Virus record (IMG/VR): IMGVR_UViG_2698536480_000003
From: a virus
Taxonomy: Duplodnaviria > Heunggongvirae > Uroviricota > Caudoviricetes
Direction: 5' to 3' (one strand)
DNA length: 16,051 nt
Shown here: in pieces, positions 1 to 16,051 of the stretch
How the letters are laid out: every line of letters begins with the position of its first letter
How positions within the stretch are numbered: position 1 is the stretch's first letter
Made by a program: the position numbers and the translations under genes
The notes under the pieces: model-generated
The model's database searches: none
What the model saw: the letters and a program-made list of their open reading frames with translations, nothing else
What the model was told of the DNA's origin: nothing

Positions 1-144
1 TTTTATGACGGCGGCAGAATCATAAAGCACCTCATTACCCTTGCCACCGCCTCGCAGAACGGGCATTCCCTGTTCCTGCCAGTTCTGAATGGTACGGATA
101 CTCGCACCGAAAATGTCAGCCAGCTGCTTTTTGTTGACTTCCAT
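1..144 (-). CDS. nohA: Terminase small subunit (lambda Nu1-like), N-terminal 48 codons only; the gene continues past the window start
   Basis: Minus-strand translation from ATG at 144..142 gives MEVNKKQLADIFGASIRTIQNWQEQGMPVLRGGGKGNEVLYDSAAVIK, recognised from memory as the lambda Nu1 N-terminus. The track ORF 3..209 is in a different frame and is not this gene. Confidence 0.85.
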   Translation of the reverse strand, partial: MEVNKKQLADIFGASIRTIQNWQEQGMPVLRGGGKGNEVLYDSAAVIK

Positions 145-321: not shown

Positions 322-333
322 AGGTCGCCGCCC
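322..333. other. cos cohesive-end site (cosN core aggtcgccgccc, reverse complement of the lambda GGGCGGCGACCT end), flanked by cosB-like sequence toward Nu1 and right-end/cosQ-like sequence toward 540
   Basis: The reverse complement of about 145-340 matches the remembered first ~190 nt of the lambda genome, and 334-537 matches the remembered last ~200 nt of lambda in reverse complement. Confidence 0.8.
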
Positions 334-532
334 CGTAACCTGTCGGATCACCGGAAAGGACCCGTAAAGTGATAATGATTATCATTTACATATCACAACG
401 TGCGTGGAGGCCATCAAACCACGTCAAATAATCAATTATGACGCAGGTATCGTATTAATTGATCTGCATCAACTTAACGTAAAAACAACTTCAGACAATA
501 CAAATCAGCGACACTGAATACGGGGCAACCTC

Positions 533-766
533 ATGTCAACGAAGAACAGAACCCGCAGAACAACAACCCGCAACATCCGCTTTCCTAACCAAATGATTGA
601 ACAAATTAACATCGCTCTTGAGCAAAAAGGGTCCGGGAATTTCTCAGCCTGGGTCATTGAAGCCTGCCGCCGGAGACTGTGCTCAGAAAAAAGAGTTTCT
701 TCTGAAGCAAACAAAGAAAAGAGTGACATTACTGAATTGCTCAGAAAACAGGTCAGACCAGATTGA
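533..766 (+). CDS. ynfO: Small basic protein, 77 aa, probably a ribbon-helix-helix-like DNA binder (YnfO family)
   Basis: ATG at 533; N-terminal basic stretch followed by RFPNQMIEQINIALEQ (strand-helix pattern typical of RHH regulators); same position and size as Qin ynfO from memory. Confidence 0.65.
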   Translation: MSTKNRTRRTTTRNIRFPNQMIEQINIALEQKGSGNFSAWVIEACRRRLCSEKRVSSEANKEKSDITELLRKQVRPD

Positions 767-823
767 AGCAATTTAGATAATCGTGCAGACTACGCCCCCT
801 CATATCACATGGAAGGTTTATCT

Positions 824-1240
824 ATGGATCAGGTAGTCATTTTTAAACAAATATTTGATAAAGTTCGAAACGATTTAAACTATCAATGGTTTTATTCTGA
901 GCTAAAACGTCACAATGTCTCACATTACATTTACTATTTAGCCACAGAGAATGTTCATATTGTATTAAAAAATGATAATACAGTGTTATTAAAGGGCCTA
1001 AAAAACATTGTGTCTGTCAAATTTTCAAAGGATAGGCATCTTATAGAAACGACCTCTAATAAGCTGAAATCCAGAGAGATCACATTTCAGGAATACAGAA
1101 GAAACCTTGCTAAAGCAGGAGTTTTCGGTGGGTTACAAATATCCACGAACAAAAAAGATATTACTATACCTTTGATAATTCATTACTATTTACTGAAAGC
1201 ATCCAGAAAACTACACAGATCTTACCACGCTAAACCATAA
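824..1240 (+). CDS. ydfO: DUF1398-family protein (YdfO/YbcV-like), 138 aa from the internal ATG (143 aa from the track start at 809)
   Basis: ORF 809..1240; GGAAGG Shine-Dalgarno 5-6 nt upstream of the ATG at 824 makes that the likelier start; order after ynfO matches Qin. Confidence 0.7.
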
Positions 1241-1384
1241 CGTCCGGCTTCTCTCACTCCTGAGCCGGACTGCATTGGTTTAATAAAAACCATCAACAAT
1301 TGTGATTTAGATATTCGGAACCATTCAAATATAACAAAACCCCGTAAAAACGAGGTTTATGGATAAATTTTATTATTGAATACA

Positions 1385-8679: not shown

Positions 8680-8795
8680 CAGAATCCTTCCGGATAATTA
8701 GCTCTCCCCTTTAAGGGACCATCCCTCTTATCCCTGCGCGCTACTTAAGTATTTTTGATTCTATTCCGGCACCGTCCAGAACTTCAAACGCGTTG

Positions 8796-8828
8796 AAAAT
8801 AAAAACAAAAACCCGCCGAAGCGGGTTA
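8796..8828 (-). terminator. Rho-independent terminator downstream of hokD (stem aacccgc/gcgggtt, loop cgaa, then T-run on minus)
   Basis: Hairpin at 8810-8827 preceded on the plus strand by aaaataaaaacaaaa, which is a U-run after the hairpin on the minus transcript. Confidence 0.7.
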
Positions 8829-8895
8829 AGTGCGGGTGCGTTGAGGATGCCTGCCACATCAGAGGTGGCGAGGGATTTCTCCCCCGCCGGGTCTC

Positions 8896-9051
8896 TTACT
8901 CCTCAGGTTCGTAAGCTGTGAAGACAGCGACCTCCGTCTGGCCGGTTCGGATTCGTACCTCGCAGAGGTCTTTCCTCGTTACCAGTGCCGTCACTATGAC
9001 GGTTAAACAGATGACGATCAGGGCGATTAACATCGCCTTTTGCTGCTTCAT
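8896..9051 (-). CDS. hokD: Hok-family type I toxin HokD (RelF), 51 aa
   Basis: Hand translation: MKQQKAMLIALIVICLTVIVTALVTRKDLCEVRIRTGQTEVAVFTAYEPEE*. Absent from the ORF track because it is under 60 aa. Confidence 0.9.
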   Translation of the reverse strand: MKQQKAMLIALIVICLTVIVTALVTRKDLCEVRIRTGQTEVAVFTAYEPEE

Positions 9052-9122
9052 AGCCTGCTTCTCCTGTCAACGCAAAGCAGAAGTGTCACCTTCGGTGCGA
9101 AACAGAGATGTCATGCTTTGGT

Positions 9123-9410
9123 TCAGAGAATGCGTTTGACCGCCTCGCTATATACTTCCGAGCGTTCTCTTTTCCCAACAGAAATCACGAAAACGACAAC
9201 TTTCTCGTCTATAACCTGGTATACAAGGCGATAGCCTGAAGACCGGAGCTTAATCTTGTAACAATCAGGCATACCACGGAGCTTGTTTGCTTCAATCCGG
9301 GGTGACTCAAGTACTTCAACCAGCTTCTTTTTCAACTGTTCACGTACCGTCGAGCCCAGCTTTCGCCATTCCTTTAGTGCCCGCTCGTCAAAATCCAGAA
9401 AATACGCCAT
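9123..9410 (-). CDS. relE: Type II toxin RelE (ribosome-dependent mRNA endonuclease), 95 aa
   Basis: MAYFLDFDERALKEWRKLGSTVREQLKKKLVEVLESPRIEANKLRGMPDCYKIKLRSSGYRLVYQVIDEKVVVFVISVGKRERSEVYSEAVKRIL; start overlaps the relB stop (TGATG). Confidence 0.95.
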   Translation of the reverse strand: MAYFLDFDERALKEWRKLGSTVREQLKKKLVEVLESPRIEANKLRGMPDCYKIKLRSSGYRLVYQVIDEKVVVFVISVGKRERSEVYSEAVKRIL

Positions 9411-9649
9411 CAGAGTTCATCCAGCGTCACACGTACTGGCTTAGGATTACGAAGCCGTTCTTTCACTATCTCCACAAGTTCAGCATCTTCATCACTCAGG
9501 AGTGTCTGTTTGAACGGCAAGCGTTCATTGTCAGCGATATACTCGAGCATGAGACGAAGCGCTTCAGAAGGAGTTACACCCATTTTTTCAAGCGCGGCGT
9601 AAGAACGCGCTTTAAGTTCATCGTCAATACGCAGGTTAATGCTACCCAT
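9410..9649 (-). CDS. relB: Type II antitoxin RelB (RHH family), 79 aa
   Basis: MGSINLRIDDELKARSYAALEKMGVTPSEALRLMLEYIADNERLPFKQTLLSDEDAELVEIVKERLRNPKPVRVTLDEL. Confidence 0.95.
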   Translation of the reverse strand: MGSINLRIDDELKARSYAALEKMGVTPSEALRLMLEYIADNERLPFKQTLLSDEDAELVEIVKERLRNPKPVRVTLDEL

Positions 9650-9660
9650 GTCTTACACCT

Positions 9661-9686
9661 CTTGTAATTACAAATGTCATTACAAG
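9661..9686. promoter_or_regulatory. relBE operator-like inverted repeat (cttgtaatta ... tcattacaag) in the relB promoter region
   Basis: Inverted TTGTAAT/ATTACAA hexad-type repeats matching 9 of 10 positions, 12-37 nt upstream of the relB start. Confidence 0.55.
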
Positions 9687-9979
9687 TATCGCACTACAAC
9701 ATGCTTAGGGCAAGTCACGAAGGAAGTCAGAAAGTAGTCGTAAGAACGGTGATCACTGTCCGCTTTGTGCCAGGAGCAGCCATTGCTAAGTCCATCCTGT
9801 ATTGTGCAGGTCAGCTCGTTTTTAAAGAGTCCGGCCATCATCTTACTGGTACAGACACCATATACTTTGTGACGGTCAGGCTACATATGCACAACTCAAC
9901 TTATTCATCTATTTTTTGCTTTAGCATGTCAGTGTTGCTTTCTCGTCGGCGGGTGAGCGGTGACCTGACCTGTCGATAA
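9674..9979 (+). CDS. ydfV: Questionable ORF, 101 aa, divergent from relB and overlapping its operator (YdfV-like placement)
   Basis: ATG at 9674 lies inside the relO repeats; no clear Shine-Dalgarno; position and size are similar to Qin ydfV as I remember it. May not be expressed. Confidence 0.3.
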   Translation: MSLQVSHYNMLRASHEGSQKVVVRTVITVRFVPGAAIAKSILYCAGQLVFKESGHHLTGTDTIYFVTVRLHMHNSTYSSIFCFSMSVLLSRRRVSGDLTCR

Positions 9980-10801: not shown

Positions 10802-12444
10802 CATTACGCGCACCGCCCAGACTGACTCAGCGCGTTTCTGGCATATCCCCGGTAAAACAAGTAACAAACCACCCGAAAATGAACACCAGAAACGCGACTT
10901 AAGAATCTACCCTATGAATGGATATGCACTCAACCGAATCGATCTTGGTTTCAATCTTTTTTATCGGGATCAGGCTTCTTTTTAGGTAACTTCGGGGGCT
11001 TAACTTGCTGATGACTTTGCGTTCGGCGCGTAAGCCAGGGATGGTCAGCTTTAGGTTTAACATAGTATTTTGAGCGTAAATCAATACGGGCATTATCCAC
11101 TCGTTCATGGACACTCTTTTCATCATCCAGTGGTATAGGCTCCGGGCCATCAACATACTTTTCCCAGCCCAGCGCTTTCCCGTCATACAGAACGTTAATT
11201 TCACCGTCAAAGTTCTCGCATACAGTAACAACCGAATGCCTAAGTCGATATCCCCGGCCCTCACTGCGTACCTGAAACGCACTGCTTTTGTACTGGAAAG
11301 TGAGATTTTTAGACAGAACGCGCTTCGCCTGTAGGCTGAAGATATAACCCAGTTCCTCTTCAGAATGGTGCACATCAAGATGAGCATTATCAGTAGTACG
11401 AGGCGACGTAGCGAACCGGTTGTTATAGGCTTCAATAAAGGTCGGCAACCATGCATTTGCTGTTTCAATATCACTGATATTCTGAAGCCGCATTTCTTTG
11501 ACCAGCCTGTCCTGTAGTGTCTGATTGGCGCGCTCTACCCGCCCTTTTGCCTGCGGGCTGTTGGCATGGATTGGCTCGATGCCCAGTGTCTTTATCGCAC
11601 GAGTGAACTGGGTCAGCTCACCTTCCCGCTCTGGGTTATTTACCCTGAATATACTGTGTCTATCAGAGTAGAGAGCGAGCGGTACGCCATGATCATTAAG
11701 GTAACCCCGGAGGGTTTCCATGTAAGCCCGGGTTGTTTCAGCAGGCACAAAACGCAACGCCATCAACGCACTGGTGGCATCATCAATGAAAACGATCAGT
11801 GTACATCTGGGGCCTCGATTTTCAAACCAGTCATGAGGTGAGCCATCAATCTGGATCAGTTCACCGTAAGATGGTCGTCGCATGCGGCGTTGATATATAC
11901 GGGCAATTTTACGACGGCGTTCACGCCATAACCCCTCTTCTATCATCCACTTTCTGAGAGTTTCAACGGATAAAGATAAACCGTGTATCTCGCGCAATTT
12001 TTCGCACGCAAACGTAGGTCCAAAATCAGCGTAACGGCCTTTGAGGAGTGAAATTACTGTTGCTCTGAATTCAGTAGAAAAGGAATTATTAGGACGCTTT
12101 CCACGTCGGTGGGAAACCAGACCAGAAGGCCCTTCATTTCTATACCGTTGCACCAGACGTTTAACCTGCCGAATAGAAATGCCAATGCGTGCCGCAGCTT
12201 GTTCCTGAATAATCTGAAGTCGGTGGAGTTCCTTATGACTCATCGTAACAGTCTCTTTGATCATGAAAAATCCCCCAGAGAATTGTCTGGGGACATTTTA
12301 GAATGGTTCAAAGGGGACATTACAGCTTGGTGTTAACAATAGCCTGCTTCTCCGTGCCTTTCGGCACGTAAGAGGCTAACCTACATGTGTCTAGCATGAA
12401 ATTGGCCTCAGATTAATGTTAAGCGTCTTGCAGGACGCGTAATG
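10802..12444 (-). mobile_element. Insertion sequence, about 1.64 kb, carrying a single DDE transposase; ends proposed from imperfect terminal inverted repeats (cattacgcg...)
   Basis: 10802-10826 (cattacgcgcaccgcccagac) versus the reverse complement of 12420-12444 (cattacgcgtcctgcaagac): 9 of 9 at the tip, then partial. No clean target-site duplication found, so the exact boundaries are uncertain. Confidence 0.4.
10951..12264 (-). CDS. DDE transposase with N-terminal helix-turn-helix and rve (integrase-core) domain, 437 aa; IS481/ISNCY(IS1202-group)-like
   Basis: N-terminus ELHRLQIIQEQAAARIGISIRQVKRLVQRYRNEGPSGLVSHRRGKRP; catalytic-core-like IQIDGSPHDW ... FIDDATSA ... ANSPQAKGRVER (D, D, E). 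Exact IS family not determined. Confidence 0.8.
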   Translation of the reverse strand: MIKETVTMSHKELHRLQIIQEQAAARIGISIRQVKRLVQRYRNEGPSGLVSHRRGKRPNNSFSTEFRATVISLLKGRYADFGPTFACEKLREIHGLSLSVETLRKWMIEEGLWRERRRKIARIYQRRMRRPSYGELIQIDGSPHDWFENRGPRCTLIVFIDDATSALMALRFVPAETTRAYMETLRGYLNDHGVPLALYSDRHSIFRVNNPEREGELTQFTRAIKTLGIEPIHANSPQAKGRVERANQTLQDRLVKEMRLQNISDIETANAWLPTFIEAYNNRFATSPRTTDNAHLDVHHSEEELGYIFSLQAKRVLSKNLTFQYKSSAFQVRSEGRGYRLRHSVVTVCENFDGEINVLYDGKALGWEKYVDGPEPIPLDDEKSVHERVDNARIDLRSKYYVKPKADHPWLTRRTQSHQQVKPPKLPKKKPDPDKKD

Positions 12445-12598
12445 TTAACTGGGGCTTTTCTCTATCTGCCGTTGGTGTCCATGCCCGAGGCAGATAGCCT
12501 CAAGCGCCCGCAGTCATTCTACTTAACTAAGATTTCCCCGCAAACCGTTTTTGTCCAGCACAGTAAATATCCAACTAAACCAATGGAGTTCGCTGTAT

Positions 12599-12778
12599 TT
12601 ACCGCCAGTATTCAATGCACATGACCGCCATGAACACCCCTAAAAAAAGGGCATTTATATATCCAAATATTAATATCAAAACATCAACTTTTTCCATATA
12701 CCTTGCTGTGAAGATGATGGGCATACATGATGCGAACAACCAGAACGCAACAAACAAAAACTGCAATGCGTTTTTCAT
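12599..12778 (-). CDS. Small predicted two-helix membrane protein, 59 aa
   Basis: MKNALQFLFVAFWLFASCMPIIFTARYMEKVDVLILIFGYINALFLGVFMAVMCIEYWR; AGGAGG Shine-Dalgarno 4 nt upstream of the ATG at 12778. The track ORF 12599..12817 starts at an upstream GTG. Confidence 0.5.
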   Translation of the reverse strand: MKNALQFLFVAFWLFASCMPIIFTARYMEKVDVLILIFGYINALFLGVFMAVMCIEYWR

Positions 12779-13032
12779 TATTCCTCCTACAATCAATGTG
12801 CAATTACATTTAAACACACCTCAATTTGGCCGGACATATAAATATCTAAACCAGAAAAAATCACTTACATAGCGTTACAAACTCTTTAGTCTAAAGGTTC
12901 ATCGTAAAACATTCCCCATACTTATCAGTCCGTTCCGCGCCAGGTAGCTCATTGCCTTATCTGGCAACCTGTAATCAGGTTTCCGCTTTTTCAGTTGGCT
13001 GGTCGTTTAACCGACATAGTTAATCCATTAAT

Positions 13033-13320
13033 CTAGTTGCCGGATGTTGGTGGATTTTCGCGTTTTAGTTGTTCATAAAAGTGCACAGCTTTAACCAGTT
13101 CTTCTGATGTAACTGGGACTGGTGAGGCAGTGAATAAGGCCTGAATTTGATAGTTCGGCCTGTCGTTACAATCCTCTTTTTTCGGTACATATTTCCAGTC
13201 ACCAGACCACTACTTCCCCTGAAAGTCCGTAACGCCTTTTTTCACGTAGCGATATCGCCATGCCACTGGTTTTGCTTGCCCCGCCGTTTCATGCCCTTCC
13301 TGATAATTAATCTCGCTCAT
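13033..13320 (-). pseudogene. Accessory ORF of about 95 codons interrupted by a single in-frame TAG (at 13210-13212)
   Basis: MSEINYQEGHETAGQAKPVAWRYRYVKKGVTDFQGK*WSGDWKYVPKKEDCNDRPNYQIQALFTASPVPVTSEELVKAVHFYEQLKRENPPTSGN*; the frame is intact on both sides of the TAG. Confidence 0.4.
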
Positions 13321-13382
13321 TCATCGCCCCACTCATCACAATATGCTTCGACCGGAGTTTTTCCCGCTTCATAGTCATCACG

Positions 13383-13508
13383 CTAGGATTCGACATCAGC
13401 AGCACTTCCACCGCGTAACTCACCATAGTCCATTAATAGTTCATCCCGCTCTTCAAAACTGATGTTATATTTAGCTGAACAAAAATCAGCCACTTTGTTC
13501 TTCCTCAT
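13383..13508 (-). CDS. Candidate small protein, 41 aa (MRKNKVADFCSAKYNISFEERDELLMDYGELRGGSAADVES)
   Basis: ATG-initiated minus-strand ORF read by hand; in tandem with the neighbouring small ORFs; no family recognised. Confidence 0.25.
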   Translation of the reverse strand: MRKNKVADFCSAKYNISFEERDELLMDYGELRGGSAADVES

Positions 13509-13557
13509 CGTCTTTTATTTCGTGGTATGAGTAATTGCAGTAGTTAAAGAAAATTTC

Positions 13558-13668
13558 TTATGCTCCGTCATGAATTTCCTCAGGTGTTGCGTCATCGTCC
13601 ACTTCGAATACATCCTCAAAATCTCCACCAGCTATTCCCGTTTCAATAATAATTTTGAACTTTCGCAT
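13558..13668 (-). CDS. Candidate small acidic protein, 36 aa (MRKFKIIIETGIAGGDFEDVFEVDDDATPEEIHDGA)
   Basis: ATG-initiated minus-strand ORF with GGAGG and a GC hairpin (gccgccc/gggcggc) upstream; no family recognised. Confidence 0.25.
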   Translation of the reverse strand: MRKFKIIIETGIAGGDFEDVFEVDDDATPEEIHDGA

Positions 13669-13840
13669 TTCACTACCGCCCTTTCGGGCGGCCTCCTGAT
13701 GTTCTGAGGGTGCAGAAATCCATCCGGTTAAGGATTAAATTTTATTTACAGAACTGAATTTAATTATTCAGATATACGTATCTGTAGCCTTACGAATCTA
13801 CTCACTGGATGCCTCTTTCATAAAAATAATCCAGTGGGTT

Positions 13841-14287
13841 TTATCGTTTTTTCCCTGTTCGTTGACAGATAACAGGTTTTCTGTCTGTCAGTGCCAGAAT
13901 CTGGCTTACCGGTATTTGCGTTTCATTCCATTAAAAAATCAGAACGCCGTGCGGCCTCAACACCCGAAAGGCTTCTTTAAATCTCTGTCGCGAATCATCA
14001 CGCCAGGCATCTTTATTCAGCCGTCCATATTTCTTTCCCATCCAGGCGTTATCACCAACACTCTCAAGATGCGGAGGGTCTAATACAACCATCGAAAAAG
14101 ATGCGTCTGCAAATGATAATGCACGAAAATCTGCGATAATGTCAGGGCTGATAATCAAGCGTCTCCCATTGCGTAATGTGTATCCTTCTTTTCTGATATC
14201 GCTGAATATCGCCCGTTCGTCAGACTTATCGAACCAGAACATGCGGCTGCCACAGCACATATCAAGAATGGTTGCCGGTGCACTCAC
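13841..14287 (-). pseudogene. Small SAM-dependent methyltransferase (motif I LDMCCGS followed by DPPH, RsmD/gamma-like order), about 150 codons, interrupted by one in-frame TAA at 13931-13933
   Basis: Track ORF 13931..14287 (118 aa) ends ...RPHGVLIF*, and the same frame continues WNETQIPVSQILALTDRKPVICQRTGKKR* to 13841. Start is GTG overlapping the upstream ORF stop (GTGA). Confidence 0.55.
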
Positions 14288-14454
14288 TGCGCCACGTCCT
14301 GAAAATTACCCTGATAGAAAGCCAGTATGCGCTGCATAACTTCGCTCTTCCGGCACTCGCGACAGATTATGTTTAGGCGACTGTCGTAGCGACGTATTTC
14401 TCCGTCAGGTGATGACCAGATAAGGTCCGGATCAACCACAGCAGGTTTCTTCAC
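14284..14454 (-). CDS. Candidate 56-aa protein translationally coupled to the methyltransferase (GTG start; VKKPAVVDPDLIWSSPDGEIRRYDSRLNIICRECRKSEVMQRILAFYQGNFQDVAQ)
   Basis: GAGGG 5 nt upstream of the GTG at 14454; its TGA stop overlaps the methyltransferase GTG start. The open frame extends further upstream without a standard start codon. Confidence 0.35.
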   Translation of the reverse strand: MKKPAVVDPDLIWSSPDGEIRRYDSRLNIICRECRKSEVMQRILAFYQGNFQDVAQ

Positions 14455-14598
14455 CTTTGCCCTCGAGAGTTTTTTGCGGGCGTTTTGCCAGTCCTTACGC
14501 GCCTGTTCAGAGGGGAATAACCCGTATCCGAAGAGCAGTTAATTGCGCTGAAAGGAATAAAAAAAGGTACGTTAAAAAAGGCCCGGGAAAAATCGTTT

Positions 14599-14736
14599 AT
14601 GGAAGGAAGGGAATATAAGCATGTCGCTCATGACGGTATGCCATGGGATAACAGTCCATGCTTTTACAACCTGGAAGAAATTGATCGCTGGATTGAGCGC
14701 CAGGCATCAGCGAGACCAAGACGTCATCTTACTTGA
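14599..14736 (+). CDS. Excisionase-like C-terminal remnant, 45 aa from the first ATG (MEGREYKHVAHDGMPWDNSPCFYNLEEIDRWIERQASARPRRHLT)
   Basis: The frame is open from 14521 (PVSEEQLIALKGIKKGTLKKAREKSF...) but has no ATG/GTG/TTG before 14599. The GREY and YNLEEIDRWI motifs resemble excisionase-like proteins from memory. Sits immediately upstream of int. Confidence 0.4.
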   Translation: MEGREYKHVAHDGMPWDNSPCFYNLEEIDRWIERQASARPRRHLT

Positions 14737-14770
14737 CTAAAAGCCACACTAACTAATGAGAGAAGTTGAA

Positions 14771-16051
14771 ATGAAATATCCGACAGGCGTGGAAAACCAT
14801 GGAGGGAAATTACGTATCTGGTTTGTTTATAAAGACGTAAGAGTCAGGGAAAATCTGGGGGTTCCTGACACAGCAAAAAACAGGCGCGTTGCAGGTGAAC
14901 TACGCTCCTCTGTTTGTTACGCAATAAAAACTGGTGTTTTCGACTATGCAAAACAGTTTCCCTCCTCACGCAATCTGGAAAAATTTGGTGAGGCCCGACA
15001 AGATTTAACCATAAAAGAACTGGCTGAAAAATTTCTGGCACTGAAAGAAACTGAAGTCGCCAAAACATCACTCAACACATACCGTGCCGTCATCAAAAAT
15101 ATCCTGAGCATAATCGGTGAAAAAAATCTTGCCTCATCGATTAATAAAGAAAAATTACTGGAGGTTCGTAAAGAGTTACTGACTGGATACCAGATCCCCA
15201 AAAGTAACTATATTGTTACACAACCAGGGAGATCGGCTGTAACTGTAAATAATTACATGACAAATCTTAACGCCGTGTTCCAGTTTGGTGTTGATAACGG
15301 TTACCTGGCAGATAATCCGTTTAAGGGGATCTCGCCATTAAAGGAATCAAGAACCATTCCGGATCCTCTTTCGCGGGAAGAATTTATCCGTCTTATCGAT
15401 GCGTGCAGAAATCAGCAAGCAAAAAATTTATGGTGTGTTTCTGTTTATACTGGAGTTCGCCCTGGTGAGCTGTGTGCACTTGGATGGGAGGACATAGATC
15501 TGAAAAATGGAACAATGATGATCAGGAGAAATTTAGCAAAAAACCGTTTCACGGTACCAAAAACACAGGCGGGAACCAATCGGGTCATTCATCTTATTAA
15601 GCCAGCAATCGACGCTCTCCGGAGTCAGATGACATTAACGAGACTGAGCAAAGAGCATATCATTGATGTTCACCTCAGAGAGTATGGCAGAACAGAAAAA
15701 CAAAAATGCACCTTTGTTTTTCAACCTGAAGTGTCAGCGAGAGTAAAAAATTATGGTGACCATTTTACCGTTGACTCAATAAGGCAGATGTGGGACGCAG
15801 CGATAAAACGTGCCGGACTCCGCCATCGAAAATCATATCAGTCGAGACATACTTATGCCTGCTGGTCGCTGACAGCTGGTGCTAACCCGGCATTTATAGC
15901 AAACCAGATGGGCCATGCAGATGCGCAAATGGTATTTCAGGTATACGGAAAATGGATGTCTGAAAACAATAATGCACAGGTAGCTTTGTTAAATACACAG
16001 TTAAGCGAGTTTGCCCCAACCATGCCCCATAACGAAGCAATGAAAAATTAA
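14771..16051 (+). CDS. int: Tyrosine recombinase / phage integrase with N-terminal arm-binding domain, 426 aa (431 aa if started at ATG 14756)
   Basis: MKYPTGVENHGGKLRIWFVYKDVRVRENLG (arm-type N-terminus like Rac-type integrases), and a C-terminal catalytic region ...HRKSYQSRHTYACWSLTAGANPAFIANQMGHADAQMVFQVYGKW. The stop codon is the last three bases of the window. Confidence 0.85.
   Translation: MKYPTGVENHGGKLRIWFVYKDVRVRENLGVPDTAKNRRVAGELRSSVCYAIKTGVFDYAKQFPSSRNLEKFGEARQDLTIKELAEKFLALKETEVAKTSLNTYRAVIKNILSIIGEKNLASSINKEKLLEVRKELLTGYQIPKSNYIVTQPGRSAVTVNNYMTNLNAVFQFGVDNGYLADNPFKGISPLKESRTIPDPLSREEFIRLIDACRNQQAKNLWCVSVYTGVRPGELCALGWEDIDLKNGTMMIRRNLAKNRFTVPKTQAGTNRVIHLIKPAIDALRSQMTLTRLSKEHIIDVHLREYGRTEKQKCTFVFQPEVSARVKNYGDHFTVDSIRQMWDAAIKRAGLRHRKSYQSRHTYACWSLTAGANPAFIANQMGHADAQMVFQVYGKWMSENNNAQVALLNTQLSEFAPTMPHNEAMKN

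Follow-up and report, generated by a model that had tools for sequence, protein, structure and literature searches.

ynfO and ydfO beside cos in a Qin-type cryptic prophage: a likely ribbon-helix-helix protein and a neighbour that is not its obligate partner

Introduction

Here we analyse ynfO and ydfO, two adjacent genes beside the cohesive-end site (cos) in a 16,051-nucleotide stretch of DNA (hereafter the window; IMG/VR record IMGVR_UViG_2698536480_000003, Caudoviricetes). Among the described systems to which they can be compared are the ribbon-helix-helix (RHH) proteins Arc, Mnt, CopG and ParD of the MetJ/Arc superfamily. Like these, YnfO is a small protein in which a basic N-terminal arm is followed by an N-[IL]-R-[FW]-P strand and two helices with a G-x-x-N/S loop between them, and like these it is found in a phage or mobile-element context. 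Unlike the established RHH proteins, YnfO does not significantly match any curated RHH family by sequence or profile and is known here from a predicted monomer. A further comparison is with the lambda morons bor and lom. These are late-region genes that can be dispensed with in lytic growth and are transcribed either against the late operon or independently of it, as appears to be the case for ynfO and the AT-rich ydfO. For bor, a phenotype and expression in the lysogen have been demonstrated, whereas neither ynfO nor ydfO is known to have anything of the kind; ynfO also differs from sporadic moron cargo in being fixed and strongly conserved at the border of the packaging module. Finally, the gene order, the sizes and the combination of an RHH domain with a C-terminal helix recall type II toxin–antitoxin (TA) pairs with RHH antitoxins (ParDE, RelBE-like). 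In contrast to such pairs, the partner here is not obligate and belongs to no known toxin family, nothing points to its being toxic, and models of defence and TA systems gave no match.

A sequence-only reading of the window had proposed that the two genes form a cargo module, in which a small regulator is paired with an effector for lysogenic conversion or phage exclusion. Both genes were in fact already known, as named K-12 genes that belong to curated families and of which one has a solved structure. Our analysis indicates that they are probably two independent catalogued genes, with YnfO acting as a small RHH regulator at the border of the packaging module and ydfO representing exchangeable, AT-rich cargo.

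Results

ynfO and ydfO are genes of a Qin-type prophage

The window is an Escherichia coli Qin-type cryptic lambdoid prophage, and ynfO and ydfO are catalogued Qin genes. Its identity to K-12 Qin is ~99.8–99.9%, and positions 400–1400 match MG1655 at 99.9%. The gene order of the matching region in MG1655 is nohA, ynfO, ydfO, gnsB, ynfN, ynfR, ynfQ, cspI, rzpQ, rrrQ, ydfR and a holin gene, which carries the name essD in the MG1655 record. Compared with the K-12 Qin genes, ynfO (b4533) is identical, and ydfO (b1549) is the same except for 1 bp, which causes the frameshift described below. In agreement with the sequence-only reading, both are real open reading frames (ORFs) on the plus strand that lie 57 nt apart between cos and the lysis cassette (Table 1), and their orientation opposes that of the late operon: the late genes are on the minus strand, as are the lysis genes rzpQ and rrrQ from position 2807 and nohA, whose start codon is at 142–144. 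From position 334 on, directly after cosN, the window aligns at 98% with the final bases of the lambda-type genome O276.

Since both ORFs matched curated families far above threshold, they are not chance ORFs. ORF 533–766 scored 75.6 bits against PF13132 (DUF3950; cut-off 25) and 36.6 bits against NF041551 (YlcI_YnfO_N; cut-off 30) and also matched PHROG 949, a group of unknown function, while the ORF at 809–1240 matched PF07166 (DUF1398) at 117.1 bits (cut-off 22). The YlcI/YnfO family is narrow: among 1.84 billion proteins, it counts 120 representatives at 50% identity.

YnfO is likely to have a ribbon-helix-helix fold

The suggestion that YnfO is an RHH protein is moderately supported. YnfO contains the core motif of its family, K-x-I-R-F-P-x-x-L-I-E-x-I ... 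N-F-S-A-W-V-x-[DE]-A-C, and I15, R16, F37 and V41 are invariant in an alignment of 25 members with identity down to 30%. An AlphaFold2 (AF2) monomer prediction of YnfO, built on 25 sequences, gave a predicted local distance difference test (pLDDT) score of 80–87 over residues 11–50. Its topology is strand-helix-helix: an extended NIRFP segment (residues 14–18) is followed by a helix (19–32), a GSGN loop and a long helix that starts at residue 37, the two helices being joined by G-S-G-N-F-S. In agreement with the sequence-only reading, which had noticed a basic tail followed by a strand-helix pattern, YnfO has a basic N-terminal arm before its strand-helix-helix core. When the PDB was searched with this model using Foldseek, nearly all of the 29 matches were RHH proteins, among them ParD, Arc, KacA, MazE9, NikR, VapB, YiiF and an RHH ParB, every match having E > 2.7.

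Comparisons at the sequence and profile level were weak but in register. With hhalign, the single sequence of Arc aligned to the family profile at E 0.013, with NIRFP placed against NLRWP, and that of Mnt at E 0.2; in a profile search of PDB sequences, a CopG RHH protein (9kkd) was found at E 1.1. No curated RHH family was matched significantly by YnfO, and RHH_6 reached E 0.09 in 1 of 25 family members. The topology of the model and the composition of the Foldseek list favour the proposed RHH character, at E values that are not significant, and we regard an RHH fold of YnfO as likely, not proven.

The core of YnfO is under purifying selection. Over codons 1–50, the ratio of nonsynonymous to synonymous polymorphism (pN/pS) was 0.11 among 45 distinct alleles, pS reached 0.74–0.88, near saturation, and the variable sites of the core were distributed 15/12/40 over the codon positions. 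Because pN/pS is this low while synonymous sites are nearly saturated, the core is a real constrained protein and not mere cos-proximal DNA that hitch-hikes. Of 5,426 complete E. coli genomes, 4,184 (77%) contain it, at 9,861 places in all and up to 12 per genome. Base composition changes past the core: the GC content of the ynfO core is 49%, drops to 36% around the variable tail and is 32% in ydfO, compared with 44% for the window.

Related genes in lambda and DLP12 reveal a mosaic junction

The two genes had been described as lying where lambda carries bor. Lambda does carry bor, but lambda and its close relatives also have their own homologues of ynfO and ydfO at the right end, between bor and cos. 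In the lambda record NC_001416, lambdap78 is a DUF1398 gene, lambdap79 is on the opposite strand, and bor then follows. The segment complement(48109..48303), unannotated in that record, encodes a 64-aa protein identical to YlcI; this ORF (L002 2710–2904, minus strand) has been annotated for phage O276 and E. coli DLP12. The pairs ylcI/ybcV of DLP12 and YlcI ORF/p78 of lambda share with ynfO/ydfO both the position beside cos and the orientation. Over their first 49 residues, YnfO and lambda YlcI do not differ, whereas the YnfO tail of Qin is unlike the YlcI tail of lambda and DLP12.

Pairwise alignment with lambda-type sequence gave 98% identity for positions 334–695 of the window and 84% for positions 750–1252, the ydfO and p78 genes being likewise 84% identical at the DNA level. 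Between these two blocks, Qin has 54 bp and lambda 613 bp, which contain the YlcI tail and p79. The lambda arrangement is thus that of Qin plus a 0.6-kb insert carrying p79, and the mosaic junction falls inside ynfO, just past the conserved core. In lambda and DLP12, this insert with its opposite-strand gene parts the two homologues; Qin lacks both the p79/ybcW insert and bor, while lambda and DLP12 have both. A different arrangement was seen in DLP12 of E. coli B (L267 2501–3349), in which iss/bor comes directly after ylcI, and both DUF1398 and p79 are missing. Hence, in some prophages the DUF3950 gene adjoins a serum-resistance gene.

The DUF3950 gene is constant and the gene that follows it varies

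We assessed co-occurrence across prophages, the lack of which the sequence-only reading had named among the grounds for refutation, in 225 distinct loci obtained from four viral-contig scans and exact-protein look-ups, of which 207 had at least 1.5 kb of downstream sequence. As the best 80 matches were kept per scan, this sample is not random. The first scan returned only near-identical Qin-type loci, and the three further scans used other family members as queries. A DUF1398 gene was found within 1.5 kb downstream in 88 of the 89 loci with the YnfO-type tail (CSEKRVS...), compared with none of the 118 loci with other tails (STE[RS]SGMNYIIK, ATDATHL..., AADIK..., INEK..., YlcI-type and satellite types). 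In the latter, the next gene is on the opposite strand and encodes, for example, a 46-aa ORF, a TonB_C protein or an 82-aa ORF. Upstream of the DUF3950 gene, the neighbour was of a constant kind, namely Nu1 (139 loci), an HNH endonuclease belonging to an HK97-like packaging module (29) or a primase (4), and what came after the DUF3950 gene was DUF1398, bor/iss directly, or nothing on that strand.

The complete genomes gave a similar picture. ydfO-like DNA was found at 8,879 places in the 5,426 genomes, of which ~5,400 correspond to ycgX, a near-universal third DUF1398 paralogue present in 5,376 of them. ycgX (L266 3001–3405) is flanked by bluR and iraM, in the vicinity of icd, with no DUF3950 gene next to it. 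From these counts and the 9,861 places of the ynfO core, it follows that about one third of the ynfO-like genes have a DUF1398 partner. Contrary to what had been proposed, the two genes are therefore not conserved together and a regulator–effector module is not what is maintained: the DUF3950 gene stays constant while the following gene varies, and DUF1398 also occurs alone as ycgX. It is qualitatively clear that DUF3950 is the anchor and DUF1398 one of several exchangeable cargos, and ynfO and ydfO are neighbours in one mosaic type, not an obligate two-gene system.

The ydfO allele of the window is frameshifted

As for ydfO, the ORF and its assignment to the DUF1398 family stood up, but the product is that of a frameshift and the start of the RefSeq annotation is 824, with GGAAGG 8 nt upstream, rather than the alternative upstream ATG at 809. 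The PF07166 match of the window copy covers profile positions 1–94 of 119 and falls short of a full-length domain, while intact K-12 YdfO matches PDB 2HH8, the solved nuclear magnetic resonance (NMR) structure of YdfO, at E 9.5e-87. The lost C-terminal block (R-W-x-T-N ... R-Y-Y-Y...) contains most of the invariant DUF1398 columns and has the lowest pN, 0.035 versus 0.113 elsewhere; pN/pS for the ydfO family is 0.24, and this block is its most constrained part. The ydfO of the window is thus probably a pseudogene that has lost its most conserved C-terminal block. The allele with four T was present in none of the 5,426 complete RefSeq genomes, in which the best match (99.8%) differed by one gap. 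Since at least five public assemblies or runs, independent of one another, contain the exact 138-aa product (P0203), the allele looks like a real minority allele and not a sequence-specific error. It coexists with an intact ynfO, and in other strains IS1 insertions are found within ydfO.

DUF1398 is, as had been noted, a family without assigned function. An imidazolium ionic liquid induces ydfO 12–117-fold, and overexpressed YdfO is cited as increasing resistance to oxidative stress (PMC4077768); ydfO was also differentially expressed upon DicC induction (PMC11430063). The lambda homologue lambdap78 is non-essential by CRISPR interference and dispensable for plaque formation (PMC10695390). The labels “head protein” (PHROG 413) and “envelope protein” that are attached to DUF1398 were not supported by anything retrieved. 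The AF2 model of YdfO was poor, and no fold relationships were drawn from it.

Repeats upstream of ynfO and a PdhR site

Upstream of ynfO, an 8+8 inverted repeat, ATCAATTA-N17-TAATTGAT, is present at 431–463 and is overlapped by a palindrome, TTGATCTGCATCAA, at 459–472. Both are kept in all Nu1-type loci, even in those where the sequence farther upstream is replaced. We consider these repeats candidate operators only. Between ynfO and ydfO, a PdhR site has been listed by genomic SELEX (systematic evolution of ligands by exponential enrichment), with a homologous site upstream of ybcV, whose mRNA was down 10-fold in a pdhR mutant (PMC7660256). The PdhR-box-like sequence falls where lambda homology resumes (750), and therefore the same box precedes ybcV in DLP12 and p78 in lambda.

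Relatives of YnfO in satellite islands

Two distant relatives of YnfO, P0310 and P0328, lie with their neighbours in phage-inducible chromosomal islands (PICIs) or capsid-forming PICI (cf-PICI)-like islands, which carry integrase, AlpA-like and antirepressor-like genes, primase, TerS and a capsid gene. YlcI/YnfO proteins were listed as accessory genes of cf-PICIs in a 2026 survey (PMC13612085). The DUF3950 gene of these islands is located between the integrase end of the island and the primase operon, from which it diverges, and it comes directly after repeats of 10–12 bp or perfect palindromes: four GTGYNYAAACAC 12-mers spaced by 20–23 bp, three or four copies of TGTTTAACAC, or two perfect TGGTACGTACCA palindromes. 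This placement is suggestive of the layout of a small autoregulating repressor. In P0310 and P0328, which are independent of each other, DUF3950 is fused to a TerS-type helix-turn-helix (HTH) domain (PF03592, best E 1.6e-11). Island DUF3950 genes and fusions of this kind may be relevant to packaging interference or to satellite regulation. The stand-alone DUF3950 gene and the DUF3950–HTH fusion were observed in L084 (4714–5103) and in L085–L088 (for example, L085 6001–6363 and 5590–5772). In L085, the island integrase has beside it, at positions 8696–9776, a Terminase_2 fragment of 61 aa, an HNH gene and a further DUF3950 gene that belongs to a resident prophage, which suggests that the island is inserted at or near the prophage terS.

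Discussion

In the explanation that we favour, YnfO, with its basic arm and predicted RHH core, would most likely dimerise and bind DNA. It could act as a small transcription regulator, probably as the autorepressor of a leftward anti-late unit that starts ~200 bp from cos. ynfO itself is the conserved anchor of the locus: in lambdoid prophages it directly adjoins the packaging genes (Nu1/cos or HNH/TerS) and invariably runs antisense to the late transcript, and relatives also occupy the divergent regulatory region of PICI-type satellites. The sequence past about codon 50 is exchangeable mosaic cargo, represented in Qin by the AT-rich ydfO, whose product is a stress-inducible cytoplasmic protein that is non-essential for lambda growth.

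A number of observations count against this explanation. The intersubunit beta-ribbon, which is the defining trait of RHH proteins, is not visible in the monomer model of YnfO. The tail of YnfO co-varies with the presence of DUF1398, which could mean a functional partnership and not mere linkage. Regarding regulation, the operator pattern at 431–472 was chosen after inspecting the sequence, the short palindrome within it is no rarer than by chance, and a consensus scan revealed no sigma-70-like promoter upstream of ynfO, nor one upstream of ydfO. The literature searches turned up no functional study of YnfO/YlcI or DUF1398. With respect to the traits of a moron, the opposing orientation, the non-essentiality of lambdap78 and the low GC of ydfO relative to the window are present, while a promoter was not found and no canonical terminator was called after ydfO by the terminator scan.

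The co-variation of tail and neighbour is also among the features that would be expected if ynfO–ydfO were a toxin–antitoxin, abortive-infection or exclusion module, with YnfO as a ParD-like RHH antitoxin and autorepressor whose tail neutralises YdfO. We consider this very unlikely. Although YnfO-type tail and DUF1398 occur together in nearly all loci of that type (88/89), the majority of DUF3950 genes lack any partner on the same strand (0/118 loci with other tails), E. coli B has ylcI followed by iss/bor, and DUF1398 persists as ycgX, away from any DUF3950 gene, in 5,376 of 5,426 genomes. The order of a small RHH gene and then a 136-aa partner, close together on the same strand, resembles a TA operon, but in lambda and DLP12 the two are kept apart by the 0.6-kb insert with its opposite-strand gene. 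In structure searches, the YnfO model came closest to RHH antitoxins of the ParD type, which have a long C-terminal helix; the presumed target of YnfO, however, matched no toxin family in Pfam or NCBIfam, could be over-produced for NMR (2HH8) and, when overexpressed, is cited as aiding oxidative-stress resistance and not as toxic. Nor did the site, a classic moron position with bor and gnsB nearby, translate into evidence for defence: PADLOC-DB 2.0 contained no family that matched either protein at E ≤ 1, the literature offered no evidence of exclusion, and a frameshifted ydfO stands here alongside an intact ynfO. The phage-exclusion role envisaged in the sequence-only reading is thus not borne out.

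A role in packaging has been kept as an alternative because of the TerS–HTH fusion and the constant site beside packaging genes. YnfO/YlcI would then be a DNA-binding protein acting near cos/pac or on terminase and would modulate DNA packaging or interfere with it; it might block the packaging of related superinfecting phages in lysogeny or redirect packaging in satellites. The gene adjoins the packaging module in two types, Nu1/cos and HNH/TerS, and its core is under strong purifying selection whatever the downstream cargo, but lambda cos function is defined by cosQ, cosN and cosB, without the YlcI ORF, and we found no experimental link. P0310 and P0328 do join DUF3950 to a TerS-type HTH within PICI or cf-PICI-like islands; such a fusion, however, could use the RHH domain merely for dimerisation, and the PICI DUF3950 gene lies at the int-proximal regulatory region and not beside terS. 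On balance, we regard a packaging role as unlikely. The view that the two ORFs are mere remnants of a cryptic prophage in decay, devoid of present function, seems highly improbable to us. Qin is indeed a defective prophage, ydfO is frameshifted here and carries IS1 elsewhere, and lambdap78 is dispensable for plaque formation; yet the ynfO core, with its pN/pS of 0.11 (45 alleles) and its 9,861 places in 4,184 of 5,426 genomes, also occurs in functional phages including lambda, and the ydfO family has a pN/pS of 0.24 and ydfO itself responds to stress. Decay fits only this particular ydfO allele.

Returning to YnfO as a regulator and ydfO as independent cargo, the RHH assignment would give a testable function to a y-gene that is present in 77% of complete E. 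coli genomes and unannotated in the lambda reference record. In some prophages, the DUF3950 gene is directly upstream of bor/iss-type virulence cargo, and a regulator at that place would be of interest for lysogenic conversion; that PICI-like satellites have DUF3950 fused to a TerS DNA-binding domain is a hint that it may take part in conflicts over packaging. A more far-reaching proposal, which we put forward as speculation with little expectation that it will hold in full, is that DUF3950 is an unrecognised class of RHH regulators at the lambdoid packaging border and in PICIs. Such regulators would control a cos-proximal conversion unit (DUF1398, and bor/iss in lambda, DLP12 and prophages of extraintestinal pathogenic E. 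coli) that is turned off by antisense late transcription on induction, and the TerS-fused satellite versions would interfere with or redirect helper packaging.

Features of the window and further observations

Table 1. Coordinates of ynfO, ydfO and associated features in the window
Feature	Position	Strand	Basis or remark
ynfO, 77 aa, YlcI/YnfO family (DUF3950)	533..766	+	Identical to K-12 YnfO annotation
YnfO conserved core, residues 11–50, predicted RHH and preceding basic arm	563..682	+	AF2, structure search, motif, pN/pS
YnfO variable C-terminal tail	683..766	+	Homologues bear alternative tails; mosaic junction with lambda-type sequence at ~695–750
ydfO (DUF1398), frameshifted allele, 138 aa	824..1240	+	Residues 1–100 canonical, next 38 out of frame
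Frameshift site, T4 run versus T5 in K-12 (1-bp deletion)	1122..1125	+	Alignment with MG1655
Remnant of canonical YdfO C-terminus, out of frame	1126..1233	+	Alignment with K-12
nohA 5' part, lambda Nu1-like terminase small subunit	1..144	-	Truncated by window edge; MG1655 annotation and match to lambda left end
cosN AGGTCGCCGCCC, reverse complement of lambda GGGCGGCGACCT	322..333	strandless	Direct sequence reading
Candidate operator region upstream of ynfO	431..472	strandless	Inverted repeat and overlapping palindrome; putative function
PdhR-box-like sequence AACAGGTCAGACCAGAT	747..763	strandless	Genomic SELEX site from PMC7660256
Hairpin, 9-bp stem, without U tract, just past ydfO stop	1242..1270	+	RNAfold; not called by terminator scan

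Between cos and ynfO, there is an additional ORF of 37 aa at 404–517 (plus strand), which corresponds to gene 69 of phage O276 and matches no family. It overlaps conserved cos-proximal DNA, and some metagenomic gene calls join it to ynfO. This ORF is unlikely to be a gene. An Rfam scan of positions 1–2200 revealed no RNA family, the sole match being a cspA-type RNA thermoregulator (RF01766) at 2205–2590 on the minus strand, the leader of cspI (112.8 bits, E 2e-29).

Compared with one MG1655 assembly, the window has 12 substitutions clustered in nohA, cosB and cos-proximal DNA up to position 386. At 1937, within ynfN, it differs from MG1655 by 1 bp in an A-run, and that MG1655 record flags ynfN as frameshifted. 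The segment at 11135–14892 is structurally different from MG1655. Given these differences (1–400, 1937 and 11135–14892), the window is a Qin variant of another strain and not of K-12.

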